Positions 537-28,500 of a DNA stretch of 64,000 nt are shown one piece after another. The position numbers and the translations under genes were made by a program. How positions within the stretch are numbered: position 1 is the first letter of the stretch; the number at the start of each line of letters is the position of its first letter. The notes beneath the pieces were generated by a model that had not been told where the DNA came from, ran no database searches, and was given only the letters and a program-made list of their open reading frames with translations. This stretch comes from a virus. Its lineage: Duplodnaviria; Caudoviricetes. The DNA is taken from the IMG/VR virus record IMGVR_UViG_3300042291_000844, positions 64,001 to 128,000 of that record; one strand, 5' to 3'.

Positions 537-540
537 ATTT

Positions 541-8375: not shown

Positions 8376-8401
8376 AACTTCGTTTTGTATATTTATATAT
8401 A

Positions 8402-11292: not shown

Positions 11293-11295
11293 TTT

Positions 11296-11535
11296 TTATT
11301 TTTCAGTCTTCTTTGAATCGATATCAGTCTTTGTTGGCTCAATTTTATTTTTATACCATTCGTATAAATAATGTTCAATTCTTGGGCCCCATGCATCCTT
11401 ATCAATTTCTTCAAACCATATGGTAAGTGCATCTAATGAATTAGCTATTTTTTCTAACGCTTTTAATTTACGTTCTTCTAAACTTGGAGAAGCATTTGTT
11501 ACTCCATCTGTTCCTTTAATCAATTGTTTTGACAT
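11296..11535 (-). CDS. Hypothetical protein (probable true start MSKQLIK at 11535)
   Basis: Upstream ATG in the ORF track overlaps the previous gene; ATATTTATA motif 24 nt before the 11535 ATG. Confidence 0.65.
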   Translation of the reverse strand: MSKQLIKGTDGVTNASPSLEERKLKALEKIANSLDALTIWFEEIDKDAWGPRIEHYLYEWYKNKIEPTKTDIDSKKTEK

Positions 11536-11559
11536 AACTTTTTGTTTTGTTTGTGTATA

Positions 11560-11568
11560 TATAAATAT
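11560..11568 (-). promoter_or_regulatory. Putative phage late-promoter motif ATATTTATA
   Basis: Intergenic, 24 nt upstream of ATG 11535. Confidence 0.55.
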
Positions 11569-11575
11569 ATTTTTT

Positions 11576-12436
11576 TTATATTTTTGTAATTTGTTTTGAT
11601 AATCTATTCCATTTAGAATAATCACTAAAATCTGATATTTGGTTTGTCATTTTCTCAATTGAAAATTTGTCATTATTAATATCAATTTTAAAATTATTCC
11701 ATTGGATTGCATTATACATCAATTCATATTCAGTTGAAAATGCATATTCTTTTTTAATATCAGCAACTGCTTTAATTCTATCTACGCAAGTACTATCCCA
11801 TTTAAAATGATGTACTTGAATTAATCCTTCACCTCTTCCAATTGGATATCGTTTTGGATGTTTTGTACCCCAGCTATTTGTACCATCTTTAAACTCTGCA
11901 TAATGTTGACCAGATGATATTTTAATAAACCCTTTCATTATACAAACTTTATTTGGACAAGCCCCACTCATTGGATATCTAAAAAATCCAGCAAGTGGGA
12001 ATTGTGTCCAAATATTTGTATGTTCATTTATCTGAGGAAACTCTCCATTTTCTCCTATCCTGTCAATAAACCCACCTGTAACGAATTCCCAATCATTTTC
12101 TTCGCAATCAGAAATTAATTCTCTAATTGGTTTTGGATAAATGTGAAATTCATCGTCATCTGAAACTACCCACCAATCATTGGGGTGTAATAATTTTGTT
12201 TCGTTATATAATTGAGTAACATATTCCCAATTAAATTTTTCTTTTATTTCTCGTCTAACAATTTTTGCTTTAGGAAATTCTTTCACAATCTGATAAACAA
12301 TATCATATGTGCTGAATCCATCCCACTCATATACAACAACATATATTTCATCTACCAAATCATTATAGTGATTTAACATATGATGTAGAGTATTTGTTCT
12401 ACTTCCGGTTACTGTAACTAATCTAATTTTTTGCAT
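11576..12436 (-). CDS. Glycosyltransferase family 2-like (GT-A; GT2/GT92-type)
   Basis: LHHMLNHYNDLVDEIYVVV, WWVVSDDDEF (DxD), VHHFKW. Confidence 0.75.
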   Translation of the reverse strand: MQKIRLVTVTGSRTNTLHHMLNHYNDLVDEIYVVVYEWDGFSTYDIVYQIVKEFPKAKIVRREIKEKFNWEYVTQLYNETKLLHPNDWWVVSDDDEFHIYPKPIRELISDCEENDWEFVTGGFIDRIGENGEFPQINEHTNIWTQFPLAGFFRYPMSGACPNKVCIMKGFIKISSGQHYAEFKDGTNSWGTKHPKRYPIGRGEGLIQVHHFKWDSTCVDRIKAVADIKKEYAFSTEYELMYNAIQWNNFKIDINNDKFSIEKMTNQISDFSDYSKWNRLSKQITKI

Positions 12437-13209
12437 CGTTGGATGAATGTTAAACCAGTAGATGTTGGTTTATTTCGTAGTATACCATTATTAAAAAAAT
12501 TAAATATTTCCCAATTACCCGTTTCTTTTAATTCTTTTATTAATTTAGATGGGCCTGATGAGAATTCATGAAAATCATTTTTATTTTTTATATCATTGGT
12601 AACAATTAATTCTTTTTCGAATGATGAATCGGTATCATGAATTGATATTATACCATAAGGTGAAAGAATTTGTGAATATAATTCAAAATCATTTTTCACA
12701 TCTTCATATGAATGACCTGCATCTATATGTAGATAATCAATTTTAATGTCCTCTTTAACAAAATAATTATAAAAGGCATTTTCGGTAGTATCTATAATAA
12801 ATCTGCAAGGAAAATTGGTTCTAAAAAAAGATTCATCATCTTCCCAATCAGTATTACCACCTATACCATTTGATGCATCTACTAAAATTGTAGTACCACA
12901 ATCGCCCCATTCCATAGCTTTGATTCCTCCAAATATTTGTTGGTCGTGCAAATCAATTCTAGCTTGTGACATTATTCTCGGAATAAATCCACCACCACTT
13001 CCTAAACACACACATGTTTTTGCTCTAATGTATTGGATTGTGGCATAAATTAATAATCCATCTCCAATATGATAATCTGTAGCTCCATGTGACCATCTAT
13101 ATGCAACTGGTTGATATTCAGAATACTCATTACCATTAGTATCTATTTTTTTAGTTCTATTGTTGGTAAAGAAATCTTTTAAAATATTATAATCGATGAT
13201 ATTGCCCAT
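12418..13209 (-). CDS. Class I SAM-dependent methyltransferase (Methyltransf_24-like)
   Basis: CVCLGSGGG, ILVDAS, IDYLHIDAGHSYEDVKNDF...GIISIHDT. Confidence 0.85.
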   Translation of the reverse strand: MGNIIDYNILKDFFTNNRTKKIDTNGNEYSEYQPVAYRWSHGATDYHIGDGLLIYATIQYIRAKTCVCLGSGGGFIPRIMSQARIDLHDQQIFGGIKAMEWGDCGTTILVDASNGIGGNTDWEDDESFFRTNFPCRFIIDTTENAFYNYFVKEDIKIDYLHIDAGHSYEDVKNDFELYSQILSPYGIISIHDTDSSFEKELIVTNDIKNKNDFHEFSSGPSKLIKELKETGNWEIFNFFNNGILRNKPTSTGLTFIQRCKKLD

Positions 13210-13390: not shown

Positions 13391-14428
13391 TTATCCCAAA
13401 ATTGCTGTACGGACTTTATCAATCCATACGTCTTTATTATCAAATTTTATCATATATTCTTTAAGATTTTTTACGTTTTTAACCCTCTCTTCATGTGAGT
13501 CGGTAAGGATTTGTTTAACACATTCATCAAATTCATTTTTGGTTGAAACTCTATATTTGTAATCAACCTCCGGTGCCCAATCTTTATTTATTATTGGTAA
13601 TTTACCATAATCTACTGCTTGAAATATTGAATATCCAAATGGTTCTTTAAAATACGCGGCGTGAAATATACCAAAATTTTTCATCATAAAAAAATGATGA
13701 TGGTTAACATCCCATTGAAAAACTTCCATGCCTTTTAATGAATATGTACTACTATCTTTAAGATTTTGTAAATCAAACTGATTTGTTAGAATATATCCCT
13801 TATGGTCGTTTAACCAATGCACACATTTTCTCGATTCAATACGAGAAGCAAATCCAATTTTACCATTATCAACATGAGTGGTAAGTGGTAGGTTATTTTT
13901 AAACTCGTAAAAATTTGGAACATTATAAGTATAGTTTGGATGTTCATCAATCATACTCGTAGTATTATTACCCACCCAAATCCTACGATTAAATGTTGCT
14001 AAATACTCATCATAAAATTCAGAATCAACTCCTGTATTATATTGTAATCTTTTTAGTTCCGGGATAGCAGAAATTGCTGCATCCATCTCTCTAGCATATG
14101 CATGAACAAAGACGGTTTTAAATTTATCTTCAAAATGCCAAATATGTGGTCTTAAATGATAATGTGGATGTAATACGTGGATTTCCTCACACTCATCTAA
14201 CCACGCTCTAGTCTTTTCAGGGTCATCGTAGTGAAAATGATGAACCAATCCCTTCGGTAAGTATTTTGATTCGAATGAAGCGGGTCTCTTGGAATCAATT
14301 ATCAATCTCCAATCCCTTTTGACAGGAAGTGTTGGCCAAACTAATTCTAAAAAATAATTAGTCCATATATCGGCACCGCCCATAACAGTATTACCACATC
14401 CAGTTGTAACTAAAACCTTTATACTCAT
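13391..14428 (-). CDS. GT-B fold glycosyltransferase (GT4-like)
   Basis: VMGGADIW, IGFASRIESRK, YFKEPFGYSIFQAVDYGKLPII (EPFG..E/Q-like motif). Confidence 0.7.
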   Translation of the reverse strand: MSIKVLVTTGCGNTVMGGADIWTNYFLELVWPTLPVKRDWRLIIDSKRPASFESKYLPKGLVHHFHYDDPEKTRAWLDECEEIHVLHPHYHLRPHIWHFEDKFKTVFVHAYAREMDAAISAIPELKRLQYNTGVDSEFYDEYLATFNRRIWVGNNTTSMIDEHPNYTYNVPNFYEFKNNLPLTTHVDNGKIGFASRIESRKCVHWLNDHKGYILTNQFDLQNLKDSSTYSLKGMEVFQWDVNHHHFFMMKNFGIFHAAYFKEPFGYSIFQAVDYGKLPIINKDWAPEVDYKYRVSTKNEFDECVKQILTDSHEERVKNVKNLKEYMIKFDNKDVWIDKVRTAILG

Positions 14429-14449: not shown

Positions 14450-15235
14450 TTATAAAAAATCGAAAAAATTTATATCATAGTACTCATTAACTTTTTTAGT
14501 ATATTCATCATTTAGTTTTGATTTAAATCGCTCACTACAATCAGTAAGAAAGATTTCGGCATGGTCATCTTGCTTTCGATTACTTCTATCATATAAATGA
14601 TATATTGGCGTATGTTTATAGTTAAGAATTGAATAACCCATACCAATACTTCGATAAGTTGGGTCAATCTCATCATATCTCCAACATAAAAATTTATCAT
14701 ATCCAACTTTTTCTAACCACTCAATTGTAGTAAAATGATATCCTCCTGCAATAGTTGATTTACAATAATCTTCACCATTATTATTTGGTTTCATTACAAA
14801 TGGATATCCACCTATTTTTTCTCTATTCCAATCATTTGCATGATGTGCTTTATTTTCTTCAAATTTACCATATAATGGATATGCAGGAGGATATGCCGAT
14901 AAAATGGAGTTTGGTAATAATGCATTAATTAATATGGTATCCCAATTTTTATCAAATCTCATATGACTATCAATTGATAAAAAATATTTAAATTCAGGTT
15001 CTATAAAATATTTAGCAAGGGAACGTATCCAACAAAGATTTGAAAATTTTCTATAATCAACATTTATTAAAGTAACTTGAGATGGAAATAAATCTTGAAA
15101 AAACATATCTGATTGTCTATCTTGATTAAACACAATAATTTTAATATTATTTGGATTTTCTGCTTTATTTATCAAATCAAAACAAGTAGGAATTACTTCT
15201 TTATCTAATCTGCAAGGTATATAAACGTATATCAT
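14450..15235 (-). CDS. GT60-like polypeptide/hydroxyproline N-acetylglucosaminyltransferase (Skp1 Gnt1-like)
   Basis: DKEVIPTCFDLINKAENPNNI, YFLSIDSHMRFDKNWD, ILSAYPPAY, IAGGYHF...VGYD, IYHLYDR; start at 15235 gives an ATGA overlap with the upstream stop. Confidence 0.8.
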   Translation of the reverse strand: MIYVYIPCRLDKEVIPTCFDLINKAENPNNIKIIVFNQDRQSDMFFQDLFPSQVTLINVDYRKFSNLCWIRSLAKYFIEPEFKYFLSIDSHMRFDKNWDTILINALLPNSILSAYPPAYPLYGKFEENKAHHANDWNREKIGGYPFVMKPNNNGEDYCKSTIAGGYHFTTIEWLEKVGYDKFLCWRYDEIDPTYRSIGMGYSILNYKHTPIYHLYDRSNRKQDDHAEIFLTDCSERFKSKLNDEYTKKVNEYYDINFFDFL

Positions 15236-16062
15236 CGGATAAACCAATCTTTTATTAAATTATAAAAATCGTTATTTGGGAATTCTGCTATATTATGATT
15301 TGGGAATGTTGATTTTTTAAATATTGGGTCACATGAATAATGTGCAAAATAATGTTTTTCTTTATCAAATTCATTTATGTTTGGAAAATATGTATTATCT
15401 TGTCCTATACATTTTATTCGATTATTATGACAAGCAATTTGAAATGACCACATTTGTTGCCACCAACCAAATGGAGAATTTAAATGATTTCTAGCAATAT
15501 CAATACCGATTTCAATAACCTCATCTATTATTCGTTTTAAAGTTTTAACTTTTATAATAATAGGAACAAACCCACCATCCATATATTCGTGGGTGTCGTG
15601 TTTTAAATATGGTTCGACTATTTTATAATTTTCCTTATCAGGTCGACTACATTTCATATGCCAATTTTCATATTTATCACAAGTTACAACTTCATCGTCA
15701 TTAGGTAATATTCCATCATATTTTTTAAATGGAATTACATCACAATCAATTATACAAACATATTCATTATTATCTAAATCATTTAATATTTGTTTAATTG
15801 CAAAAAATAAATTTCCTGCTGAAAAATATGGATGTTCATCTGATAGGGGTAATATTGTATGAACTCCATCTACAATTTTGTATGGTATACTTAAATTCCA
15901 ATCAACATCCTTAATTATTTTACCATGAGAATTTCTATCTGCAATTAATACAATAGAATTCCAAAATGCTAGATTCCCATATACATTTTTTTGTGCATAT
16001 TGAAATAAACTACTTTGCCATTTAAATAAGTTATTTGATACTGCTACGGGTATTGTTATCAT
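15232..16062 (-). CDS. GT95/GT96-like glycosyltransferase (plant hydroxyproline arabinosyltransferase / serine galactosyltransferase-like)
   Basis: NLFKWQSSLFQY (cf. Y..WQ), HPYFSAGN, YVCIIDCDVI (DxD), GWWQQMWSFQIAC (cf. GW..EMY.Y..A), FAHYS...FKKS; recognised by eye. Confidence 0.6.
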   Translation of the reverse strand: MITIPVAVSNNLFKWQSSLFQYAQKNVYGNLAFWNSIVLIADRNSHGKIIKDVDWNLSIPYKIVDGVHTILPLSDEHPYFSAGNLFFAIKQILNDLDNNEYVCIIDCDVIPFKKYDGILPNDDEVVTCDKYENWHMKCSRPDKENYKIVEPYLKHDTHEYMDGGFVPIIIKVKTLKRIIDEVIEIGIDIARNHLNSPFGWWQQMWSFQIACHNNRIKCIGQDNTYFPNINEFDKEKHYFAHYSCDPIFKKSTFPNHNIAEFPNNDFYNLIKDWFIR

Positions 16063-16681
16063 ATTTTTTTAATAATTCGTATATTTTGTTTGCAATTATT
16101 TTATAACCTAAATAATTTGGATGGGTATCACCACCATCAGTATTTTGCCAACTATATGGATATCTAAAATTATATTCCCAAACAGAAATATTTTTTTGTT
16201 TTTCATAATCTATTAATAAACTACTCATAGTTAATTCTTTATCAATAAATCTACTTAAATTAATATTAGTTGTATCTAAATTTAATTCAGTCATAAAAGT
16301 TTTTGCAAATGAATTAAATAGAAAATAATTATATTCTGATAATAAAGTTGTTATAGATTTTACATCATCAATAGGGTTACCATTATCTCTATATGGATAA
16401 CTTAGCATAATAATAATAATATCATCTTTATGTAAATATTCTATATTTTTTTTTATTTCTTCAACAATATTTTTATTACTAAAATTACACCATCCACAAT
16501 TCACAAATGGTAAATCTAATAATGTAGCTAAATGTCTTGGCCATCCATTTGAATTTCTTAATTTATTAGTAAATTCATTTGGTGAGATAACTTCTTTATA
16601 ATGAATATCCAATTCAACCCCATGTCCTTGTGTCCAGGAATCACCAAATGTAATTAATCGTGTATTAGACGTTACTTTCAT
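16031..16681 (-). CDS. SGNH/GDSL-type hydrolase
   Basis: ITFGDSWTQG, NCGWCNFSN, DTHPNYLGYKIIA (DxHP catalytic block). Confidence 0.75.
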   Translation of the reverse strand: MKVTSNTRLITFGDSWTQGHGVELDIHYKEVISPNEFTNKLRNSNGWPRHLATLLDLPFVNCGWCNFSNKNIVEEIKKNIEYLHKDDIIIIMLSYPYRDNGNPIDDVKSITTLLSEYNYFLFNSFAKTFMTELNLDTTNINLSRFIDKELTMSSLLIDYEKQKNISVWEYNFRYPYSWQNTDGGDTHPNYLGYKIIANKIYELLKKYDNNTRSSIK

Positions 16682-17864
16682 ATTCCCAATTTTTTAATTT
16701 ATAATGAATATACATATTTCTATAATATTCACCTTCAAATTCATCTTTTCTTCCGTGTAAACAAACGGCAGATTCGTACAATAATACATCTCCTATTTCC
16801 ATATAAATAGTATGGAGGTTTCCATTATGGTCTTCTATTTGTAACCCCCAATCATTTCCATCGCCTAAATTTTTATCTATCATAATAATAGATGATATAT
16901 GATGAGTTTCAAGTCTATCGTAATGTGATACTAATTTAGCACCTTTATTATAACTTCGGATACCATAGATATATGTAGGTTCGATTTCTTCACCACACCA
17001 ATTACTATGTATTGATTGTAACTTTTTATGTAAATTATTTTTTAATTCTGGAATCGTATCTAATGGTAATATATCAGATGTATTATTATTACCTAATATA
17101 ATACTTTTTTTATGTTCAAATAATTCTTCTGTTTTATTATTTTTAACTGATTCGTACATTGTATTTACTAATTCTAAATCTTCAACTGACAATTTGGTTA
17201 GTAAAAACCCAGTTTCACTTAGTTTTGGTAACCCATCTTTTGTAGAAAATTTATTTTTTAATGATTTTATTTTTGGATATTTTGCATCGTATAATTTTAA
17301 ATCTAACGTTGAATTCCACGGCTTTTCTCTAACCCATATTGTTATAATATATTTAGAACCATCTATTACATCACACCCCTCATGTAACGAATCGGTTGTC
17401 GGTATACCATCAACCATATTTTGCCACGCAATCGCAGTTCCAATTTTTGGAGTAAACGTTAAATCTAAATTATGAAATTTAGTTTCACCACCCACAACGT
17501 CCTCATTTAAATAAATCATAACCGTCCAACATCTATTACCTGAATGTAAACAATGTTGTTCATATGAATGTTCATTAAACCAATCGTGATGTTGTCTAAA
17601 AAATTGTCCTTTTTTATATACTTGTCCTTGAACACTTTCTATATGATTAGCAGGTAATCCTACTTCTTTTGTAACTTTTTGTTTTATTTTTTGCGTAATA
17701 AATTGTCCTTCTTTAATATTAGAAGTTGAACTTGTTCTAGCATCATGTAATACACCAACATAATTACCGACCACAGTACTTGGTTGATTATTTGCATCAA
17801 TTTGTTTTATTAAATCAATACATTCATCGTTAGATAAAAAATTATCAATTTGTCGTATTATCAT
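16665..17864 (-). CDS. Prolyl 4-hydroxylase-like protein with two tandem 2OG-Fe(II) oxygenase domains
   Basis: Domain 1: IDNFLSNDEC, RTSS, QVYKKGQFFRQHHDW (HxD), TVMIYLNE..GGET, SLHEG..V..GSKY; domain 2: SHYDRLETH, YESAVCLHGR. Confidence 0.85.
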   Translation of the reverse strand: MIIRQIDNFLSNDECIDLIKQIDANNQPSTVVGNYVGVLHDARTSSTSNIKEGQFITQKIKQKVTKEVGLPANHIESVQGQVYKKGQFFRQHHDWFNEHSYEQHCLHSGNRCWTVMIYLNEDVVGGETKFHNLDLTFTPKIGTAIAWQNMVDGIPTTDSLHEGCDVIDGSKYIITIWVREKPWNSTLDLKLYDAKYPKIKSLKNKFSTKDGLPKLSETGFLLTKLSVEDLELVNTMYESVKNNKTEELFEHKKSIILGNNNTSDILPLDTIPELKNNLHKKLQSIHSNWCGEEIEPTYIYGIRSYNKGAKLVSHYDRLETHHISSIIMIDKNLGDGNDWGLQIEDHNGNLHTIYMEIGDVLLYESAVCLHGRKDEFEGEYYRNMYIHYKLKNWEYESNV

Positions 17865-17870
17865 ATTTTA

Positions 17871-19520
17871 TTAGTCTTGTGCTTTTATTTCTGCTCTATT
17901 GTGTACTAATATTCCATTACCAAAATAAACATCATCTTCTTCAATTCCAAGTGATACTGTATTTAAACTTTCATTTATTATATCGATGGTTTCAATTAAT
18001 ATAAATTCATCATTATTATTTAATAATAAATCACCTTCTATTAAATTTTTAACCTGTAAGAATATTACTTCATTATTTCTTTTAACTAAAATTGGATGTT
18101 CGTATGTTACTCTTAATAATCCATTATTTATGGAATAATACCAACTATATGAACCGTGAATTAATCTATTAACTACCGAAGTTGATTTTGTATATTGTAA
18201 ATCGTTAGTTGCAAATATTTCCCAATTTTCTTCTATATTTTTATCTAATCCTGTTATAGAAAGACTCATTACCACATCTCCCATTTCTAAATTTTCAATT
18301 AATTTAGTAGAACCATCACTCATTAAAATTTCACTTCCATATGATAAACAAGGAGCACAACCTGAATTCTGACATTCTTGTAAACTTGTGTATATACCAA
18401 ATACATTATCAATTTCACATACCCCATTATTACAACTATATAAATCCCCAACCGGTGGGAAATAAGTAGGTACAGTTGGTATAGTTGGAGCTACATAAGT
18501 AGGAGTTACATCCGGAGCCGGAGTTACTTGTGGTGTTACATTTGGAGCAGCGTCACAATTTATATTTCTAACTTCAACCACCGATATATTATACGAACTA
18601 TCGTACACCGCAACATAATAATTTCCATTTGCTAATTGATATGCACTTTGATTTAAATTATATGCGTTAGGGTCATTAAAATTAATTGCTTGATTACCAA
18701 TGTGATAAACATAATTTCCAGAACCACCACTTACGGTCACTATATCAATATATCCATTACCTGCATAACCAAAACAACCTACATTAAGTGTCATTGATAA
18801 GAAATACGCAGCAGGAGTAACATTTGGAGCTGGAGTTACTTGTGGTGTAACATTTGGAGCTGGAGTTACTTGTGGTGTAACATTTGGAGCTGGAGTTACT
18901 TGTGGCGTTACGTTTGGAGCCGGAGTTACTTGTGGTGTTATGGCTGGTGATGGAGTAAATCCACAAGCCAATGCACATGTGTTATATCGAGTAGTCTTTA
19001 ATAAAACTGCAATACCTGGAGATGCTTGGTCAAGAATTTTATAATTATAAGTCAACTCATTATCAGCAGTTCTATAAAATCTATTTAATAAAACAGTTGT
19101 ATCAATTGGAAATGCAACAAGTACTTCAGATTGTGAAACTGTACCACAATTACTACACACATATTCATCTGCTAAATAAAAATCATATGGGTAATATGCA
19201 GGTGTAACATTTGGAGCAGGAGTTACCTGTGGTGTAACATTTGGAGCTGGAGTTACTTGTGGTGTTACATTAGGAGCAGGTGTTACGTTTGGAGCCGGAG
19301 TTACTTGTGGTGTTACGTTTGGAGCCGGAGTTACTTGTGGTGTAACATTTGGACTTGGTGAACCGCTACCCCTACCATAAAACTCATCCATCCCATGCGG
19401 TTTTGTAGGAATTCCATAAGCAATCGCAGCAGTATCTAAATCTATTTGAGTACCAGATGGGACAGCCCTATCGGTATTCATATTATCCATTGAAATTTGT
19501 CCTGATGCTGGTAACGCCAT
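17871..19520 (-). CDS. Putative virion/tail-fibre-associated protein with Pro/Thr-rich repeats and C-terminal Hint domain
   Basis: N-terminal MALPASGQISM...GMDEFYG of the type that follows S74 tail fibres; (PNVTPQVTPA)n blocks; CLSYGSEILMSDGS...GNGILVHN; TAATG overlap with the fibre gene. Confidence 0.8.
   Translation of the reverse strand: MALPASGQISMDNMNTDRAVPSGTQIDLDTAAIAYGIPTKPHGMDEFYGRGSGSPSPNVTPQVTPAPNVTPQVTPAPNVTPAPNVTPQVTPAPNVTPQVTPAPNVTPAYYPYDFYLADEYVCSNCGTVSQSEVLVAFPIDTTVLLNRFYRTADNELTYNYKILDQASPGIAVLLKTTRYNTCALACGFTPSPAITPQVTPAPNVTPQVTPAPNVTPQVTPAPNVTPQVTPAPNVTPAAYFLSMTLNVGCFGYAGNGYIDIVTVSGGSGNYVYHIGNQAINFNDPNAYNLNQSAYQLANGNYYVAVYDSSYNISVVEVRNINCDAAPNVTPQVTPAPDVTPTYVAPTIPTVPTYFPPVGDLYSCNNGVCEIDNVFGIYTSLQECQNSGCAPCLSYGSEILMSDGSTKLIENLEMGDVVMSLSITGLDKNIEENWEIFATNDLQYTKSTSVVNRLIHGSYSWYYSINNGLLRVTYEHPILVKRNNEVIFLQVKNLIEGDLLLNNNDEFILIETIDIINESLNTVSLGIEEDDVYFGNGILVHNRAEIKAQD
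17898..18350 (-). other. Hint (Hedgehog/intein-like, BIL-type) autoprocessing domain, 151 aa
   Basis: Starts Cys (CLSYGSEILMSDGSTKLIENL..GD), has TYEHP (TxxH) block, ends ILVHN; +1 residue is Arg and only 8 aa follow. Confidence 0.85.
18500..18550 (-). repeat. Coding repeat block 3 (APNVTPQVTPAPDVTP)
   Basis: Direct reading. Confidence 0.85.
18811..18957 (-). repeat. Coding tandem repeat block 2 (AITPQVTPA, 3x PNVTPQVTPA, PNVTPA)
   Basis: Direct reading of 30-nt repeats. Confidence 0.95.
19198..19353 (-). repeat. Coding tandem repeat block 1, 30-nt unit encoding PNVTPQVTPA (4 full units plus 2 short PNVTPA)
   Basis: Direct reading, e.g. ggtgtaacatttggagctggagttacttgt on + strand, with synonymous variants. 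Confidence 0.95.
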
Positions 19521-22500
19521 TACTTATTCTCTTTTAACTCGTTAATTTCTTTTTTTAATTCCTTAATACATTCAACTAATAAAGGTACGATTTTTTCGTA
19601 TTTTATAGCAAGATATCCATCATCTCTTATTGCAACAACTTCAGGTAGAATTCCTTGTACTTGTTGAGCAATTAAACCCACATCGTGTTTTCTAAAAAAA
19701 TAATCATCTTCACCCTTACCATTACTTTCTCTTTGGATATATTCATCTGTCCAATCAAATTCTACTCCATCTAATTTTTCTATTTTATCAAGTGCGTTAT
19801 CTATTGGTATAATATTTTCTTTTAATCTTTTATCTGATGATGCAAATGCAGTTATGTTTCCTGTTGCAGTAATACCACCTCCGACTTCTACAAAAGTATC
19901 TTGAACTGTTCTTGCAACTTTAATATACCTAAGATTACTTGCTACGACTTGAAACCCACCGGGAACTAATTCTACTCTATTATCATCCTTCGATAATGTT
20001 ATTGAATTAATTTTAGGAGTATTGAATGATACATATAATGAAAATGTAGATACCGAACCAAAATAATCACGAGATACAGTTGAAAACGCAGTACTAATAT
20101 ATGGTACAAAATAATATGTTGTTGAAGCAGCAGCAGTAAAGTTTCCCTGAAACGTCCTTGAAGTACCCGTACCATCTGACCCATATACACCAACTGATTT
20201 AGAATAAGAAGTAGTATCCTCAAAGTCATCAATTCCACCAAAAGTTGTTCCAAAATTTGCAACTTCAGTACCAGTGGTACTACCTGCTCTAACCGATACA
20301 CCTGCAGTGATTTGAGTGTTTGCAAAATTTATTTTTGATTGCTGACCTCCGAAGTAGTATTGGTAAGGATTGTAAGGGTCATAAGCTTGTGTAATGTATG
20401 CAGTTACTGCCGCTAATTGTGCTTGACTTATTACGATATCCAGATTATATATTCCCGCATTAGTTATAGTTACAGCAGGAGCAGAGGTTAAACTATAAAG
20501 TCCCCCAGCTAGTATGTTGACACTAAGATAAGTACTACTAGCATTATTTGCTGTTTGAACATCATTAAGAGTGGCGGTATGGGGGATACCAGAGGTTGTT
20601 ATCCCTGAACCACCTGTTCCAAAATTGGTCAATGAAGCCTGATTACTTACTAATACTCTTAAAGTGTTAGATGTATCATAAATTTCTAAACCAGGAGTTG
20701 TTGCTGATGGATTTAATTTTATACTATTAGAATTAGATGAGAGGGTTGTTTGGTTAATTGTCCACCCACCGATAACCCCAGCACCTGCAGTAATAGTAGC
20801 ACCGGTAATCGTACCACCGGTAATACTACCACCGGTAATACTACCACCATTAATACTAGTTCCAGTTATAGTACTAGCAGCAAGTGTTCCACTAATTGTT
20901 GCACCCGCGGCATTTAGTACGCCGGCCGCAGTTACACTAAATGGTGCAGAATTAAATGCGGAATTTCCTAACCAAATTCCAGTTGTATCTGCTTTAAAAA
21001 TACTAGTTCCACTTCCGATTGAAATTGTACCTCCACTAAGTTCACCTGTAAATGTACCCGCACCATTAATAGTTAAAGATGAACCATCCCATTTTAATGA
21101 ATTAGTAGCAGATTTTAAAGATAATCTATATACGGGTGCGTTACTAACATTAACTACCCCCATAAAAATACCATTTACATCGTATCCTTGTGAACCAGCA
21201 GTTGCACTTTGACCGATAGATATATACGGATATGCACTACCACCTGCTAAAGTAATATTTGCTGCTGCCATTGCACCATTCGAATTCGTACCAATGTTTA
21301 AAGTTTTTTGAACAAACGAATCTTCAAATATACCTATTTTAGCTGCTACAAAGAAATCCTGTGCACCTAACGATATCCAACCCGTTTGTGCTGCTTGATG
21401 TGGTGCACCATTTATTACATTTCCTGTTGCTGAAAGATGTTGTCTAGTTGTTGCGTAATATGTATTATAAGGAGCATTTCCATCCGAACTCCATAAGACA
21501 GTATCTCTTCTACCAGTCCCCGTTGTTAACCCATCTGAAAATTGATATGTTCTACCACTCACCCAAACTCCGGTATGAACCACACCAGGACCGGTCTGAC
21601 CATTGGCACCCGGTGAACCATCATCTCCATCAGTTCCATTCGTTCCATTCGTTCCATTTACTACTTTTGTAAATCTAACAACAATAGTTTGAGAACCACT
21701 CGTTCCTTCACTATCGGTATAACTAACTACGATAGTAGCAGAAGCCTCTGCCGCATTCATTACAGCTGTGGAAGTATTTAATATATTATTATTTCCACCT
21801 ATGTTTGGATTTGTTGAAAACCCACTATATGTCGCAGTCATTGAATCAAATCTACTAGTAGTTCCTTCTAATGCAGAAATTGTAACATTTGTTAAAGTTC
21901 CTGTTTGAGTACCTGCAGAATTTGCTAATACTGATTGTGCTTGCGGTGTTGCAGTTACTATAATATTTGGAACTGCTTTTTTAACTTTTGATAAACTTAA
22001 CGTATCAGTTAAAGTCCTACTCGTTCCTTCCGAATCAGTTACTACTGCAGTTATTGTAATCGTAGATGAAGCTACCCCACTTGGTAATGTTCGTAAACCA
22101 AGAACTGGGTCTGAAACTAATCGTATCAACCCACTTGCGGCAGTTGTTGCTATTGATGCAATATCCGAAGATGTTGCAGTCAATGACGTTATTGTTTTAT
22201 TTGTTGTAGACCCATTATAAGTTTCTTTTACAATTACACTTACATCTACAAAGGGGTCTAATTGAACTCCTGTTGACTTTGCAGTTACACTTTGGTCTTT
22301 TGGTGTTGATGATATAGCTAAAACCGGTGCAGCCTTTTTAATTTTTGTTAATGAAACACCTCCAAATACATTTCTACTAGTTCCTTCGGAATCCGTTACC
22401 GAGCCCGTTATAGAAAGTTCAACCGAATCCGTTCCGGTTACCATATTTGGATATGCTAAATTTGTAGTTGTTTTTGTTATAGGTGTAAATGCTGAACTAC

Positions 22501-25333
22501 TATTAATTGTTGGTGCATTTGCTAAAGTTAGGGTTGAGGTAACCCCATTATATTGTTCTTTTACTGATAAACTAGAATTAGCAAATGCAGTAATTTGTGT
22601 ACCTATTGATGTTGAATCAGTTGATTGATTATTATTTCCAATTACAAATTCTAATACAGGTGCAGCTTTTTTAACTTTTGAATAAGTTATTTCTTTTGAA
22701 GAACTAATTATAGTTCCACCGCCATCCTGATATTTTACTAATAAAGTCAAAGAACCACTATCTTGACTTAAAGCATTTATTGAATAATTTGTTCCGTTAA
22801 ATGTATTAGCAGTTAAACCTGAAGTTGTTAAAATACTTGCACTAAATGAATTATTAGTAATAGGAGATGCATAACTTATAACTTCATTACCAACTTTAAC
22901 TGTTATAGAACCGCTACTTGCAACAAACCCGCCTATTACCGAACCAACCGAATTAGCAGGAAAAGATGTATTCTCATTACTTGTTGCAACTGAAAACCCA
23001 TCTAATATTTTTATGGGAGTTATTTTAATTGCATCTGAAAATTTATTTCCAAATTGGTCAGAACCAGTTATTGAATAAACCGCTTCTCCAATTCTATAAT
23101 CAAAATTAGTTCCGTTTATAATATATGTATCTACTCCATTTGTTGGATTAGCCACCCCAACTTGTGTTAATAATGGTGCAGGATATAAAACCGAAGATGA
23201 TACTATATTTACCTCTAATGGAGTTGAAGCAGATGCTAAATTTTTTCTTTTAGCTTCTATTGTTATTATTTGACCACTTGGATTTAGGGATAAATCAGTT
23301 GCTTTATAAATAAATTGATTTGTATTTGCAGTTACAAATACACCAGGTGCGTTATCACCATCTTCAAATCTATAAATGGTTTCAAACTCATTTAATCCAT
23401 CACATGATGCAGTATAAGTTATAGAACCAACTAATACCGATGCAACACTACCACTAAAATTAGCAATAGTTAAACTTGCACCACCCTCTCCTGCGTTTGT
23501 TAAAAGACCAGGATATGTTCCCGCATAACTAGCAGGAACTATATAATTACCATTTGAATCAAACGCAGCTGATGCGTAAGTAACTGAACCTGTTAAATTT
23601 TGTTTTGTTACTTTAAATCCAATTTGTTGAAAAGCAGGATTACCAAATGAACCACTGCTAAAACGAAATGCAGTTCTATCTGATTCAAATGTTAAGATTT
23701 TTGATGTGGTTGTAAAACTATTACCACCATTAAATGTTTTTGAAGTTTTTACATCAACGGGAATATAGTTGTTATTTATATCGTAAAATTCAAATTTGAA
23801 ATCATATGTCTCACTTGCAAGTTTACGAGGAATATCTTGTATTAAAGTAAATTCATCAGGTGAAAATGAAGTTTCTTGTGCGTTTTGTAAACTTACATTT
23901 GCCAAATACCAATCATCCCCCGCAAACTCAAATACTAATTTAGCATCTCCGGTCTTAGTGGCCTTTACATTTTGAGTTACGTTTTGTTTTGTAGTATATA
24001 TCGCCGAATTAGTGACATTTACAATAGTTTGTTGCGGATACGCCGAACCACTAAAATAAGCTTTTAAAGTTTTAGTTGAATCATTTGAACCACTTAGGAG
24101 TGTTTTAAATGAAAGGGTATACTCTACGCCCTCAGTCAGAGACAGGGATTGGGATGTGATTAAAAGGGCGGTATTATCATAATTTGTACCACTATAATCT
24201 ACGTGAACCGATGCGTTTAATTTATCAACATTTATTGTCATTGGATGTGTATTCGAACCACTTACCCAATAATTTTTTATATTTGTATCCGTAAACTGAC
24301 CGTAAGATAATTCCGTAGTAGCAGTTGTAGTTACATCTTTTAGTATTTCTGATGATTCTAATTTAGTATCTTGTATGAACTGATAATCACCAACTTCGTT
24401 TCTAGATTTTCTATAAACCTTTACTCTTGCTACATCACCAACAAATGTTTTTAAATCTGATAATTGAATTTTAGCAAAAGAACCCGTCAATGCTGATGTT
24501 TCAAATGTTTGTCCTTCAATGTGGTCAAATGTAGTTGTATATGCCGTAGCAGGAAAATTTGAAACGGAGGATGATATTAGATACGGAACATCTACAAATA
24601 CCTCTTTATTATTTAGGACTTCTCTTACAGTTGCGGAATACCCTAGTGATGGTATTTCTATCGTATTTTCATCAACTGATGATGTCCAATTTGAACCATC
24701 AGTAATTTTCAATTTATATAAAGTTCCGGCTGTCCAATTTCTAATATCAGTACCATACACCGGTTGTTGTGGTATACCCTCAACCAATCCCGTTTGAGTA
24801 ATTGATGGGGTTGTTATGTTAAAAATGGGCTTGTTTATCTCATCAATTGTAATTTTAGGTCTTTGGTAAAACCTAACAATAGTTTCATTAGCAAGATTTT
24901 TATTTACATTAAACGTTCTTTCCCACTTAATATTATAGATACCACGCCACTCTTCAGGAACATCCCTAACTACTCCATTCTCGTCAATATAGGTCTTTAA
25001 TTCACCTAATACAGTAATTTTTCCTAAACCAATAGGAGTATCCTCATAGACGTGAACTGATACAATTTTTGAAATTCCTTCGTAATATTCTGGTATACCA
25101 TTACCCGGCTCGTAATAAATCGGTGTTCCGGTTACGTCCAATATCTCAATCTTAATTTCAGTTGTTTCCTTTAAATGCTCAGAACCCTCTATAAGAAACC
25201 CATTCTTACCACCGGTGAGGGTATCTTTGAATTCGGTTATTCTAAAATATTCAGACGTTCTAACTTGGTCATTTATAAATGTACCAAAGTTTGATAAGTT
25301 TTGATACGAAGCGAACGATTTAATTATTGCCAT
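19520..25333 (-). CDS. Long tail fibre/spike with C-terminal peptidase S74 intramolecular chaperone
   Basis: C-terminal FASSDKRLKENI..I.NAL.KI..L.GV.FDW...DVGLIAQQVQ.ILPEVV...L.IKYEKIVPLLVECIKEL; internal KVKKAAP repeats of about 100 aa, a short G-X-Y run, S/T-I-T-G-G pentapeptides. Confidence 0.9.
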   Translation of the reverse strand: MAIIKSFASYQNLSNFGTFINDQVRTSEYFRITEFKDTLTGGKNGFLIEGSEHLKETTEIKIEILDVTGTPIYYEPGNGIPEYYEGISKIVSVHVYEDTPIGLGKITVLGELKTYIDENGVVRDVPEEWRGIYNIKWERTFNVNKNLANETIVRFYQRPKITIDEINKPIFNITTPSITQTGLVEGIPQQPVYGTDIRNWTAGTLYKLKITDGSNWTSSVDENTIEIPSLGYSATVREVLNNKEVFVDVPYLISSSVSNFPATAYTTTFDHIEGQTFETSALTGSFAKIQLSDLKTFVGDVARVKVYRKSRNEVGDYQFIQDTKLESSEILKDVTTTATTELSYGQFTDTNIKNYWVSGSNTHPMTINVDKLNASVHVDYSGTNYDNTALLITSQSLSLTEGVEYTLSFKTLLSGSNDSTKTLKAYFSGSAYPQQTIVNVTNSAIYTTKQNVTQNVKATKTGDAKLVFEFAGDDWYLANVSLQNAQETSFSPDEFTLIQDIPRKLASETYDFKFEFYDINNNYIPVDVKTSKTFNGGNSFTTTSKILTFESDRTAFRFSSGSFGNPAFQQIGFKVTKQNLTGSVTYASAAFDSNGNYIVPASYAGTYPGLLTNAGEGGASLTIANFSGSVASVLVGSITYTASCDGLNEFETIYRFEDGDNAPGVFVTANTNQFIYKATDLSLNPSGQIITIEAKRKNLASASTPLEVNIVSSSVLYPAPLLTQVGVANPTNGVDTYIINGTNFDYRIGEAVYSITGSDQFGNKFSDAIKITPIKILDGFSVATSNENTSFPANSVGSVIGGFVASSGSITVKVGNEVISYASPITNNSFSASILTTSGLTANTFNGTNYSINALSQDSGSLTLLVKYQDGGGTIISSSKEITYSKVKKAAPVLEFVIGNNNQSTDSTSIGTQITAFANSSLSVKEQYNGVTSTLTLANAPTINSSSAFTPITKTTTNLAYPNMVTGTDSVELSITGSVTDSEGTSRNVFGGVSLTKIKKAAPVLAISSTPKDQSVTAKSTGVQLDPFVDVSVIVKETYNGSTTNKTITSLTATSSDIASIATTAASGLIRLVSDPVLGLRTLPSGVASSTITITAVVTDSEGTSRTLTDTLSLSKVKKAVPNIIVTATPQAQSVLANSAGTQTGTLTNVTISALEGTTSRFDSMTATYSGFSTNPNIGGNNNILNTSTAVMNAAEASATIVVSYTDSEGTSGSQTIVVRFTKVVNGTNGTNGTDGDDGSPGANGQTGPGVVHTGVWVSGRTYQFSDGLTTGTGRRDTVLWSSDGNAPYNTYYATTRQHLSATGNVINGAPHQAAQTGWISLGAQDFFVAAKIGIFEDSFVQKTLNIGTNSNGAMAAANITLAGGSAYPYISIGQSATAGSQGYDVNGIFMGVVNVSNAPVYRLSLKSATNSLKWDGSSLTINGAGTFTGELSGGTISIGSGTSIFKADTTGIWLGNSAFNSAPFSVTAAGVLNAAGATISGTLAASTITGTSINGGSITGGSITGGTITGATITAGAGVIGGWTINQTTLSSNSNSIKLNPSATTPGLEIYDTSNTLRVLVSNQASLTNFGTGGSGITTSGIPHTATLNDVQTANNASSTYLSVNILAGGLYSLTSAPAVTITNAGIYNLDIVISQAQLAAVTAYITQAYDPYNPYQYYFGGQQSKINFANTQITAGVSVRAGSTTGTEVANFGTTFGGIDDFEDTTSYSKSVGVYGSDGTGTSRTFQGNFTAAASTTYYFVPYISTAFSTVSRDYFGSVSTFSLYVSFNTPKINSITLSKDDNRVELVPGGFQVVASNLRYIKVARTVQDTFVEVGGGITATGNITAFASSDKRLKENIIPIDNALDKIEKLDGVEFDWTDEYIQRESNGKGEDDYFFRKHDVGLIAQQVQGILPEVVAIRDDGYLAIKYEKIVPLLVECIKELKKEINELKENK

Positions 25334-25353
25334 TGGAATCCTTTGTTATAGCA

Positions 25354-25361
25354 ATAAATAT
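25354..25361 (-). promoter_or_regulatory. Putative late-promoter motif (TACTT)ATATTTAT upstream of tail-fibre operon
   Basis: 20 nt upstream of ATG 25333. Confidence 0.6.
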
Positions 25362-25380
25362 AAGTAAAAAAGATTGTATT

Positions 25381-25388
25381 ATATTTAT
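25381..25388 (+). promoter_or_regulatory. Putative late-promoter motif ATATTTAT for the plus-strand RHH gene
   Basis: Back-to-back with the minus-strand motif; 29 nt upstream of ATG 25418. Confidence 0.5.
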
Positions 25389-25417
25389 TCTATGGAAACC
25401 CATAGAAACCAATAGAA

Positions 25418-25588
25418 ATGAACAAATATACGACAATTCAAATAAAAAAAGATACCCATGCACTTCTACAAGAATATTGTAGAGAACACGGGTATACGTT
25501 AAGTGGGTTGGTAGACTCGTTAATTAAACAAAGAATTAACAAACCTAAACCAACCAATATATTAGCGGTTAAAACTTTACATAGCTAA
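25418..25588 (+). CDS. Small ribbon-helix-helix DNA-binding protein (56 aa), only credible plus-strand gene
   Basis: Below ORF-track cutoff. My translation: MNKYTTIQIKKDTHALLQEYCREHGYTLSGLVDSLIKQRINKPKPTNILAVKTLHS; ATATTTAT motif on + strand 29 nt upstream. Confidence 0.7.
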   Translation: MNKYTTIQIKKDTHALLQEYCREHGYTLSGLVDSLIKQRINKPKPTNILAVKTLHS

Positions 25589-28500
25589 ATCCATTTGTTT
25601 TTTTAATTTCTATTAAACCATCCACCACATCTCTCATTGAGTCGATATGGGATATAATCATTACAAAATCAAATTGTGTCTTCAAATAAGTGAATAACAT
25701 GAATAGGGATTGTAGGTTCTCACTATCTAATGTTCCGAACCCTTCATCTATAACTAGGAAGTTAGGACGAGGAAGGTTACATACATTGATTAAAGCCACC
25801 CTAATTGCAAGTCCAGAGATAAACCTCTCCATACCACTACACATCTCCAAAGACCACTTATTATCCCCGTATACGAGGTAAGCGTTGATGTTTTTACCAT
25901 CCATCTCTAATTGCATTCCAAACTCAACAATTTGTGCCAAAATGTTATTAACCTCACCCTCAATCATTGGTAAAGATTTTTCAATCAATTCATATGATAC
26001 CCCATCTTTATTTAGGGCGTTAAGATAATATTCGTATAATTTCGATTGTTCCTCTAAATCCTTAACCTCTTTGATTTTATCCTCTAAGGTATCTCTTTGC
26101 GATTGTAAGGATGAAACTCTACCATTTAATTCTAATAACTTTTTATTTGTTTTTGTAAATAAAATTTTATTAGCATCTAAGGTTTCTCTTACAATTTTGA
26201 TTTCTTCTCTGATTTCGCCATTCTTTTTGATTTGTTCTTCGTTCTTATAATACTCATCAATTAGTTTAATTTGTTCGGCGATTTGTGTTTGAACCCTAAT
26301 TTCTTCAGTTTCAGATGTTGATAACTTGTTAATAAGTGAAGAAATTTCCCTATCAATTTTAACTTCTTTCTCCTTTGTATCGTTTAAATTAGTCCAATCC
26401 GTCTCATATTGGGCCAATGATGCAATCTTCAACTCTAACGCCTCCTTTGTATTATTTGCAGTAACAATGAATCCATTTACTTCAATTAATGTTTTTTCTA
26501 CATCATCTTTACTTTGTAGGATTGTTTCCGAATTTTCCATACAAATATTACAATCTGGGTTATATTTGTGTAAATCCAAATGTTCTTTTTTATCAACTAA
26601 CGATGTATGCCAAATCCCTAATTTATCTAATTCGTGTTTAGTATTACCTAAATCCGTTTTAGCAACTCCTAGTTCCTTTATCTTTGTTTCTAACTCATCT
26701 TCATTAAAACCATCAATTATTTCTTCTAATTGTAATTGTAAAGCCTCTAACTTACCAATACGGTCTTGCGTAGCATTTTTAGTATCTAATACCTCAGTCT
26801 CCTTATCAGTAAGAATTTTCTTTCTTTTTTCTAATTCCTCTATTCCAATATTATCTGAGTTTAATTTTACAATTTTACCATTCAAACGAATTAAATCTTT
26901 ATTTAAGGATTCCTCTTCCGTTTTAATTCCACCCAATTCAATATCAACTAATTTGTATTCATTTGTTGATTCGGTCAATTGAGTTTTGATATCGGCTAAC
27001 TTAGAAGTAAAATCATCAGATTTGAATTTTTTGATTAAAGTAGCATTATCTCTATTCTCATCTGCGGCAACTGTATATAATTTATCAAAAATATCTACGC
27101 CAATAAATTGAGAAAGTATCTCTTTTCTTTCTGATTGTGATTTATCGATGAATAGTGCGTTATTACCTTGTAGGGAAAGGGATGTTAGAACAAAATCCTC
27201 AAATTTACCTAAATATCTTTCAATATTTTTATTAGTATCCCTTCGTTGTTCACCATTTAATGATGTAGTAACTCCGACATCTTCTTTCCAAAAGTTTACG
27301 TTTACTGAAAGGTTTGTTCCCTTACGAGTCCACCTTGCACTACGTTCAATGAAGTAATCCACTCCATCAATTTCAAAATTAAATTTACAATAGAAATTAT
27401 CTTTTTGATTATTTAGGATATTTTTTGATGATGAACTTCTTGATGTTTTATCAAAGATACAAAATGAAAGGGCATCAAAAAGAGATGATTTACCACTTGC
27501 GTTTGGTGCAAATATACCAATCACTCCTTGAGCGTTTTCAAATCTAACTTTGTTACCTTCACCATATGAGAACATATTTGAGAACTCCAATGTCTTGGGC
27601 ACCCAAAGTATATTTTCAGCCAATTCAGAATCATCAATTCGGTGATTTATCTCTTTATTGATTTCAGAAATTTTATCTAAATCGTCATCTTCTAATAGGA
27701 ATTGTCTTTCTAAATAATCTCTAATCAATTGATTTTGAAAAGTTTCATCTTTTACGTTACCAACAATATTTTTGTTTAATTTTGAATTTGTCTTTAATTG
27801 ACCAATGGTATCCGTTCTTGTTACCGTCACCTCTGCTACATTAAATAATTCTTTAAGTTCAGTAATACGCAATTTCATTTCTGATGCTTCGGTACTCGTA
27901 AACCTTAATCTTAAACGTGGGTTCTTAGGTAATTTTGTATCAATCTCATCATATACCCATTGTGGTATCTGTCCGTTGACTACATCGATTGTAAGAAATC
28001 CATAATCATTATGAAGATGGTGTTCCGTAAATGTACGAGTTGGAACATCCCATAATAAATACCCGTGATTCTCCAACATCTCTCCGTGATTTTGTTGAAC
28101 CATTGAACCTGCATATGCTACGTGTTCCCAACCTTCACCAAATGTTTGACGTTTGTGGATATCACCTAACATTGCCATATCAAATCCTTCAAACATATCG
28201 ACGGTGAAAGAATTTGATGATACTACATACCCAATATCAGTTTGTGCTTTATTTACCGGCCCGTGAAAAAGACAGATTTTGTTTTCACCCTCAATATCCT
28301 TAGCCAACGGCCAATTTTCTTTTTTATCCAATATGGAATAAACAACAAAAGTAATATTGTTATAATTGTAAACACCAGTATCGCGTAGATAATGGATGTG
28401 AGGATTGTTAAGATTATCGATAATGGGCGTAAGAACATCTAATCTATGGTTATTGTTTAAGTTACAATCGTGGTTACCTGTTATTAAGAAAGTTTCTCTT

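Follow-up and report, generated by a model that had tools for sequence, protein, structure and literature searches.

A candidate phage-encoded cassette for hydroxyproline O-glycosylation of a tail-associated protein

Background

To our knowledge, O-glycosylation of hydroxyproline (Hyp) occurs only in plants, algae and certain protists. In the extensin and arabinogalactan protein (AGP) pathway of plants and green algae, a prolyl 4-hydroxylase (P4H) acts first, followed by HPAT (glycosyltransferase (GT) family GT95) on Hyp and by SGT1 (GT96) on Ser, with UDP-Araf and UDP-Gal as the respective donors. In Dictyostelium and Toxoplasma, the P4H PhyA and then Gnt1 (GT60) carry out the Hyp glycosylation of Skp1. 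Here we describe a six-gene array (positions 14450-25333, minus strand) in a 64,000-nucleotide stretch of tailed phage DNA, positions 64,001 to 128,000 of the IMG/VR record IMGVR_UViG_3300042291_000844 (hereafter, the window), in which relatives of the enzymes of both pathways are encoded next to a Pro-rich repeat protein and a tail fibre. We propose, and consider the balance of the evidence to lean towards this reading, that the phage uses this locus to modify a tail-associated protein of its own after translation, the linkers of which would be hydroxylated and then glycosylated.

The phage locus shares with the plant and algal pathway a collagen-type P4H, a GT-A transferase of the GT95/96 type and substrates with Pro-rich repeats, and the (T/S/A/V-Pro)n tracts of the phage proteins resemble the non-contiguous Hyp glycomodules of AGPs. 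Compared with the HPATs of the plant Golgi, however, the phage transferase is a soluble protein of 276 amino acids (aa) that lacks the N-terminal anchor and aligns from about residue 63, with 12-19% identity. Unlike the plant and algal pathway, the phage system is predicted to operate in the bacterial cytoplasm and is operon-linked to its putative substrate. The features in common with the Skp1 pathway are a cytoplasmic, soluble prolyl hydroxylase, a GT60-family transferase and, in the C-terminal half of the phage oxygenase, a fold like that of Dictyostelium PhyA. In contrast to that pathway, the phage has no Skp1, the predicted target is the many prolines of a repeat rather than one Pro, the N-terminal half of the oxygenase is of the collagen type and not the PHD type, and the GT60-like gene is a minor component, present in 3 of the 32 clusters of HPAT-like loci surveyed below (15 of 85 loci, the window counted). 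The phage oxygenase also differs from its counterparts in both pathways in having a second hydroxylase domain, which is fused to the first and belongs to a phage-specific family.

Among viruses, the chlorovirus PBCV-1 likewise encodes a collagen-type P4H, A085R, which is homologous to the N-terminal half of the phage oxygenase (2.3e-8), although PBCV-1 is a eukaryotic giant virus. The PBCV-1 enzyme reportedly hydroxylates (X-Pro)-type repeat peptides from viral open reading frames (ORFs), and we know of no Hyp-transferase linked to it. In mycobacteriophages, as in the proposed system, structural proteins of the phage are modified within the host cytoplasm by transferases that the phage itself encodes; there, O-glycosylation of capsid and tail-tube proteins targets C-terminal Ser/Thr-rich stretches, employs other transferase families and takes place in actinobacterial hosts, and we are aware of no hydroxylase step in these systems. 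The mimivirus L230 protein, a lysyl hydroxylase/glucosyltransferase of a giant virus that acts on hydroxylysine in collagen G-X-Y repeats, also couples a viral 2-oxoglutarate (2OG) hydroxylase to glycosylation of the hydroxylated residue in repeat proteins of the particle surface, whereas the modification proposed here for the phage is of Hyp in (X-Pro)n.

Results

The preliminary description of the locus, made from the sequence alone, placed six genes in a fixed order on the minus strand, and all six ORFs are indeed present. In the direction of transcription, these are the tail fibre (1937 aa; 19520-25333); the proposed substrate, a 549-aa protein with PNVTPQVTPA repeats and a Hint domain (17871-19520); a two-domain 2OG oxygenase, assigned by profile hidden Markov models (HMMs) and fold (399 aa; 16665-17864); an SGNH/GDSL-like protein, possibly a hydrolase or acyl-transfer enzyme (216 aa; 16031-16681); the GT95/96-like or, for brevity, HPAT-like transferase, assigned by HMM and fold (276 aa; 15232-16062); and a GT60-like transferase, assigned by HMM (about 261 aa; 14450-15235). 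The junctions are as had been noted: base 19520 is common to the stop codon of the fibre gene and the ATG of the repeat-protein gene (TAATG), a gap of 6 nucleotides (nt; 17865-17870) precedes the oxygenase gene, and the stop codon of the HPAT-like gene overlaps the ATG of the GT60-like gene at 15235 by 4 nt (ATGA). The oxygenase and SGNH-like genes overlap by 17 nt and the SGNH-like and HPAT-like genes by 32 nt, and the longest ORF of the GT60-like gene begins with TTG at 15247. As for the suggestion that no terminator intervenes, only weak, intragenic, terminator-like hairpins of 3 GC pairs were detected (10, compared to 5.4 +/- 2.2 in shuffled sequences), and nothing in the sequence argues against a single transcription unit. 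Upstream of the fibre gene lies an AT-rich intergenic gap of 235 nt (25334-25568). The motif at 25354, from which the operon had been proposed to run, could not be confirmed as a recurrent element: chance alone predicts 18.6 near-matches to the 15-mer at 25346-25360 in the window, and 15 are present.

The tail fibre carries a C-terminal S74 intramolecular-chaperone domain (Pfam Peptidase_S74, 4.8e-15) and a short collagen-like run at about residues 1227-1248, and matches two PHROG tail fibre families (2.5e-30 and 3.8e-29). The repeat protein consists of a conserved N-terminal domain of about 55 aa, three (PNVTPQVTPA)n tracts that alternate with small Cys-containing domains, and a C-terminal Hint domain. 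Two of the tracts were delineated from the translation and its tandem repeats (residues 52-112, 19185-19367, and residues 187-239, 18804-18962) and the third from the translation (residues 326-359, 18444-18545), all on the minus strand. The decapeptide, with two Thr-Pro per unit, is encoded by 30-nt repeats in all three tracts, and eight identical units differ in their DNA at synonymous sites only (mean of 2.4 nt), which implies that the peptide sequence is under selection. The protein matches a PHROG family of virion structural proteins (8.4e-9).

The Hint domain (residues 391-541; 17898-18350, minus strand) is of the BIL/Hedgehog type, judging by motifs read in the translation, namely Cys1 (C391), block B (TYEH, that is, TxxH) and the terminal VHN. 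The HN is followed by Arg and just 8 residues, so that there is neither a +1 Cys, Ser or Thr nor a C-extein; splicing is excluded by the missing nucleophile, and cleavage or transfer is possible. Pfam Hint families match weakly, below the cut-off (the Hom_end_hint match begins at residue 391), and tblastn hits include the 'large intein domain protein' of Phage NCTB (1e-16) as well as tail/virion proteins of Erwinia jumbo phages. This similarity, together with the position of the gene after the fibre, suggests that the repeat protein is located in the virion.

As had been predicted, the oxygenase is related to P4Hs. Its N-terminal half (17250-17864, minus strand), a collagen-type P4H domain by both Pfam and PDB matches, hits PF13640 with 59.8 bits (5.5e-16; cut-off 27), and all nine PDB sequences that it matches are P4Hs, including those of Bacillus anthracis (7e-21), Chlamydomonas (1.7e-12), human C-P4H alpha-2 (1e-11) and PBCV-1 (2.3e-8). 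The Fe(II)-binding triad HxD...H and the 2OG-binding Lys about 10 residues past the distal His are aligned with those of P4Hs; in the HMMER alignment, hHDwF and lHeGcdV..GsKyI of the phage domain stand over hYDyF and lHgGapV..GeKwI of the B. anthracis enzyme. DNA hypermodification by a TET/JBP-type oxygenase and a transferase was considered and rejected, given that this half is a P4H in every search.

The C-terminal half (16668-17249, minus strand), identified from its structural model and homologues, is another 2OG-Fe(II) oxygenase domain, PHD/P4H-like in fold, in which H109, D111, H165 and R167 (HxD...H...R) are invariant in 23 homologues. The best PDB folds for the AlphaFold2 (AF2) model, which has a pLDDT of 95, are P. 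putida P4H, Dictyostelium PhyA, PHD2 and OGFOD1/Tpa1, all matched at about 1e-7, the first three with TM scores of 0.55-0.65. At the sequence level, this half belongs to no Pfam family (PF13640 is matched by 1 of the 23 homologues, at 0.09), and its profile found nothing useful among PDB sequences; it is best described as a separate, mainly phage family. The two halves are fused in most loci, and in some phage lineages either one stands alone beside the HPAT-like gene, so each half is probably a working hydroxylase. Homologues of the C-terminal half in cultured Synechococcus phages (cyanophage records H4 and H12-H18) are annotated 'ferrochelatase', which looks like a propagated mis-annotation because the fold is that of a 2OG-Fe(II) oxygenase.

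The proposed GT95/GT96 relationship of the 276-aa transferase is borne out by its match to PF23452 (HPAT; 42.6 bits, cut-off 23.9), a family that most of its homologues match too. The DxD motif (D106 and D108) and H241 are invariant in 31 homologues, and the AF2 model (pLDDT 95) is a GT-A fold. In a Foldseek search of Swiss-Prot, the best matches are Arabidopsis SGT1 (GT96; 4.9e-11) and seven plant HPATs (GT95; 1.8e-10 to 2.1e-9), which GT6 (8e-7 or weaker) trails by three to four orders of magnitude, and the TM scores to Chlorophyta HPAT clusters are 0.79-0.81. Going by the model, the enzyme is equally near to SGT1 and to the HPATs, and the data favour neither GT95 nor GT96. These are themselves related families (PMC8012813). 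The protein begins directly at the first beta-strand and is soluble, that is, it has no type II membrane anchor, as expected of a bacterial cytoplasmic enzyme, the anchor being a non-catalytic feature.

The HPAT-like family is almost confined to phages. Among about 185,000 prokaryotic genomes, it is nearly absent, with just two hits, both on short contigs of metagenome-assembled genomes (MAGs), and the nearest HPAT-family clusters of the Atlas are mostly viral (96% and 100% in the closest two, 56% in the third). A tblastn search of 50,697 phage records with the protein gave no match, and therefore no cultured phage in that collection carries it. In the two MAG contigs (L216:7025-8809 and L217:3405-5795; L numbers denote the loci collected), which are short, have 53% GC and are binned to Planctomycetaceae, a single protein fuses a GT60 domain (PF11397, 106 bits) with an HPAT-like one (PF23452), and a 1044-aa Pro-rich ORF lies nearby. 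Pseudomonadota, according to Atlas clusters, encode fusions of PqqD, the recognition element of ribosomally synthesized and post-translationally modified peptides (RiPPs), with HPAT-fold domains, an arrangement that fits peptide-directed transferases.

The assignment of the last gene of the operon to GT60 also stood up, with a match to PF11397 (GlcNAc, the GT60 Gnt1 family; 73 bits, cut-off 21; 3.9e-20). The DxH (ID[SA]H) and NWD motifs are kept in 15 of 15 homologues, and a C-terminal His is conserved as well; a search of PDB sequences with this protein gave no match. NCBIfam has no model for any of the three core enzymes. Elsewhere among phages, GT60 domains occur together with O-FucT domains in proteins of 1005 aa (Atlas clusters).

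The relationship between these enzymes and Pro-rich linkers was examined in two independent designs, one centred on the tail fibre and the other on the HPAT-like gene, and the co-occurrence that the preliminary description expected in related phages is strong in both. Homologues of the first 700 residues of the fibre are encoded in 68 IMG/VR loci, which provide 34 distinct downstream architectures with enough sequence. A Pro-rich protein is encoded among the next three genes in 12 of the 34, all 12 with a P4H, and the remaining 22 have neither (p = 1.8e-9, uncorrected for kinship); there is not one architecture with a P4H and no Pro-rich tracts (0/34). The tight and universal coupling is that of P4H with Pro-rich linkers.

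The family of proteins that share the N-terminal domain of the window's repeat protein (MALPxSGxISMxDMNTDR...MDEFYGKS) was aligned, and within it the linker changes with the hydroxylase. Where a P4H is present, the linker is (PNVTPQVTPA)n in the window and poly-Pro in L231 (15631-16734); where it is absent, there are long poly-Thr linkers in L229 (7445-8626), L236 (14416-15366) and L247 (6856-7377), and no linker in L224. In our assessment, no other single observation argues as strongly as this switch within one family for action of the hydroxylase on these linkers. None of the three poly-Thr architectures includes the HPAT-like gene, a pattern that, with three cases only, fits Hyp better than Thr as the acceptor, and the poly-Thr linkers of the P4H-less phages suggest a parallel, Thr-based (mucin-like) system.

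In two P4H-bearing loci of this survey that lack the HPAT-like gene, a DUF6065 protein (about 1e-36) is encoded after the P4H, directly in L220 (16920-17648) and one gene further on in L231 (18103-18840). A 276-aa gene after the P4H of L231 was considered as HPAT-like and rejected because its hhalign comparison with the HPAT-like profile is not significant (probability 11%); the product is probably a different GT-A, for which GT8/GT77-type language-model neighbours in the Atlas are a lead only.

The second survey is based on HPAT-like homologues, which form 63 clusters in metagenomes and occur in at least 104 IMG/VR loci, 80 of which were retrieved. With identity to the window protein down to 35%, 84 viral loci collapse into 32 clusters at 80% identity; ORFs were called by a simple in-house script, and an ORF was counted as Pro-rich if at least 20 residues fell in 20-aa windows with at least 30% Pro, an arbitrary threshold. 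In 27 of the 32 clusters, a P4H-like oxygenase, one like the C-terminal half, or both, lies at most three genes from the HPAT-like gene, and in 25 of the 32, a Pro-rich ORF occupies one of the positions -5 to +1. Of the 155 ORFs close to the module, 41 are Pro-rich, compared to 8 of 380 farther off (odds ratio 16.7, p = 7e-17, again uncorrected for kinship), and retention of the enzymes with no Pro-rich neighbour, which had been named as evidence that would speak against the proposal, is seen in just 2 of the 27 oxygenase-bearing clusters. Both the coupling of P4H with Pro-rich linkers and that of the HPAT-like gene with P4H are observed here, as are the gene order, family membership and intact catalytic motifs described above.

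The tracts in these loci are alternating X-Pro, with X being T > V > S > A, placed between small Cys-containing domains. Some, in L067, L070 and L048, consist almost entirely of (VP)n and contain very few Ser/Thr or none, so that Pro/Hyp is essentially the sole possible acceptor there. With the repeats masked, the carrier proteins sort into at least two unrelated families, a large modular one and that of the window protein, plus three singletons. In many lineages, it is the fibre-like proteins of 1,000-2,300 aa that themselves contain the Pro-rich tracts.

Of the remaining genes of the locus, the SGNH-like one gives a weak family match in the window, where the protein scores 21.8-22.7 bits, below the Pfam cut-off; its orthologue in L009 reaches 29.0 bits against 23.6. 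The window protein has the GDS block I motif at residues 13-15. In L011 (9383-10840), as also in L012 and L013, an SGNH domain is fused N-terminally to the HPAT-like domain in a 485-aa protein, followed by a stand-alone 184-aa P4H. Between the oxygenase and HPAT-like genes, other lineages have a dTDP-glucose-4,6-dehydratase-like gene.

Downstream of the GT60-like gene, a 345-aa protein (13391-14428, minus strand), probably a GT-B glycosyltransferase, is encoded in the same position as in relatives (L009, L016); it has no Pfam or NCBIfam match, and its language-model neighbours, phage GT1/GT4 and AGT clusters, are a lead only. A glycan island follows (3-13209, minus strand), in which Pfam and NCBIfam identify a methyltransferase, a GT2, two GT7+LamG proteins, a twitch radical-SAM protein, several SDR sugar epimerases/dehydratases, a dTDP-4-dehydrorhamnose 3,5-epimerase and a thiamine pyrophosphate (TPP) enzyme. 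The tandem GT7 genes (8402-9859 and 9859-11292), of the beta-1,4-galactosyltransferase type, each include a Laminin_G_3 (LamG) lectin-like domain; GT7 is an animal-type transferase family, here found in a phage. The radical-SAM gene (6930-8375) matches the NCBIfam 'N-terminal twitch domain radical SAM' subfamily at 1e-106.

The window is AT-rich (about 30% GC), and very few of its genes lie off the minus strand. It belongs to a very large uncultured tailed phage and encodes T4-type baseplate and tail-fibre proteins. One window protein is closest to the record of a 635-kb 'uncultured phage', and megablast of the region against the 50,697 phage records gave no match. Upstream of the operon (25569-28724) lies the gene of an SbcC/Rad50-like ATPase of 1051 aa, whose N-terminus is extended by about 375 aa that match no family. 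The sole other Pro-rich ORF of the window encodes a gp27-like baseplate hub (48030-49043) with a Pro-rich N-terminal stretch, PPLLTPGPGAVPFVGYTIPPASPSPPNPP; this protein could be a second target of the hydroxylase.

Discussion

The comparative genomic evidence supports the system well, and the reading of the locus as a Hyp glycosylation operon comes out favoured by every computational check that had been proposed for it and was run. Under this reading, the operon would be transcribed late in infection from upstream of the tail-fibre gene, and the two-domain oxygenase would act on the 549-aa repeat protein, hydroxylating prolines of its (X-Pro)n linkers, or, in other lineages, on the fibre-like proteins themselves. 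The soluble GT95/96-like transferase would then place the first sugar on the new Hyp, and a second glycan would be started by the GT60-like transferase, either on Hyp or on the Thr next to it in V-T-P. Decoration or elongation of the glycans may fall to the SGNH enzyme together with the transferases, methyltransferase and sugar-nucleotide enzymes encoded downstream. Self-cleavage at Cys391 probably removes the C-terminal Hint domain. The linkers would end up stiff, resistant to proteases and coated with glycans, and would present small Cys-rich or adhesin-like domains on an appendage of the tail. Hydroxylation of the tracts, Hyp as the acceptor, the identity of the sugar, the virion location and the benefit to the phage are parts of this scheme that we infer, and they are not equally secure. 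Action of the P4H on the linkers appears quite likely, whereas for O-glycosylation of Hyp the arguments are evenly balanced. The wider generalization, that aquatic tailed phages commonly convert (X-Pro)n and poly-Pro linkers of tail appendages to Hyp-rich rods, with the lineages that encode the GT95/96-like enzyme and, in this phage, also the GT60-like one O-glycosylating the Hyp, is offered tentatively, with slightly less than even confidence.

Several observations weigh against this scheme or parts of it. The loci are related by descent, so that the Fisher tests overstate the independence of the cases; that inherited synteny is the whole cause of the associations is nevertheless countered by the fibre presence/absence test and the linker switch, both uncorrected for phylogeny, which argue against it. 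The clusters L004/L014 and L056-L060 keep the oxygenase, HPAT-like and GT60-like genes beside replication genes with no Pro-rich neighbour; two full records were scanned by script for Pro-rich ORFs, and the full length of one such replication-side record yielded just a weak, short ORF of the KIPNPIPNIP type about 30 kb off. Among 80 random viral loci that encode (PT)5P, the HPAT-like gene and the C-terminal oxygenase half are found in none, a GT60-like gene in 4 and a P4H-like gene in 2, and therefore PT linkers exist without the HPAT-like cassette. In the fibre survey, the HPAT-like gene occurs in just 2 of the 12 P4H-positive architectures, the others having DUF6065 or a different GT-A-like gene; hydroxylation may often be an end in itself. 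Finally, a review cites an unpublished analysis in which no Hyp was detectable in PBCV-1 virions, despite the active P4H.

Within the random (PT)5P sample, four loci (L103, L114, L125 and L166) have longer GT60-family genes, of about 330-450 aa, near Pro-rich ORFs, and L125 also carries a P4H-like gene. An association among P4H, GT60 and PT repeats may thus exist independently of the HPAT-like enzyme.

By their families, the enzymes could use either Hyp or Thr as the acceptor. SGT1, the top fold match of the GT95/96-like transferase and as near to it as the HPATs are, is a Ser-specific alpha-galactosyltransferase, and GT60 includes polypeptide Thr/Ser GlcNAc-transferases, some of them specific for Thr. 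Hydroxylation could accordingly serve stiffening or stabilization separately from glycosylation, with the GT95/96-like and GT60-like enzymes acting in mucin style on Thr/Ser of V-T-P and not on Hyp. The sugars could sit on Thr, which is present, as two Thr-Pro, in every repeat unit of this phage; the scarcity of the HPAT-like gene among P4H-positive fibre architectures and the poly-Thr linkers of P4H-less homologues, which suggest Thr-based glycosylation in the lineage, point the same way. Nevertheless, the adjacency of oxygenase and HPAT-like genes in 27 of 32 clusters favours a Hyp acceptor, the HPAT-like gene is missing precisely from the architectures with poly-Thr and no P4H, and some of the associated tracts are almost pure (VP)n, so we regard glycosylation of Thr in place of Hyp as unlikely, although it is the most serious of the alternatives.

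Two further explanations concern the substrate. The repeat protein might be modified and yet not enter the virion, being secreted, retained in the cell or exposed on the host surface as a decoy, an adhesin or a matrix-like coat. Its predicted virion location derives only from the position after the fibre and the Hint similarity, and the reported absence of Hyp from purified chlorovirus is compatible with such a fate; but the gene overlaps the fibre stop codon, and the many lineages in which Pro-rich tracts are built into fibre-like proteins make a non-virion product improbable in our judgement. Marginally less probable still is an unrelated substrate, such that the island modifies host envelope polysaccharide, small molecules or phage DNA and the fibre locus is merely a hot spot for accessory genes. 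An oxygenase and a glycosyltransferase do act jointly on DNA in base-J and hydroxymethyl-pyrimidine glycosylation, the numerous sugar-nucleotide and transferase genes are typical of polysaccharide clusters, and the module lies beside replication genes in two clusters. However, the N-terminal half of the oxygenase matches protein P4Hs only and not TET/JBP, both transferase families are protein-directed where characterised, and neither the perfect coupling of P4H with Pro-rich linkers nor the linker switch within one family would be expected.

In full-text literature searches, no description of Hyp glycosylation in a phage, or of a phage enzyme of the HPAT/GT95 type, came to light. Prolyl 4-hydroxylase ranks with the commonest 'auxiliary metabolic genes' of pelagic phage metagenomes, being detected at 62% of Baltic water stations, and its use by viruses 'remains cryptic' (PMC9301287). 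The coupling of P4H with linkers leads to the testable hypothesis that the viral P4H is a maturation enzyme for structural proteins rather than a metabolic one, a role that could account for the abundance of prolyl hydroxylase genes in aquatic phages. If the scheme proposed here is valid, the viral 'P4HA auxiliary metabolic gene' would be reassigned to virion maturation, and Hyp O-glycosylation would extend to phage-infected bacteria, its first occurrence outside eukaryotes, with an extensin/AGP-like glycoprotein coat made in the bacterial cytoplasm. The small, soluble transferases (276 and about 260 aa) would be attractive tools for producing Hyp-glycopeptides in bacteria. For the phages themselves, a glycan coat on tail linkers could influence how the particles adsorb, how stable and protease-resistant they are, and how they adhere to organic matter.

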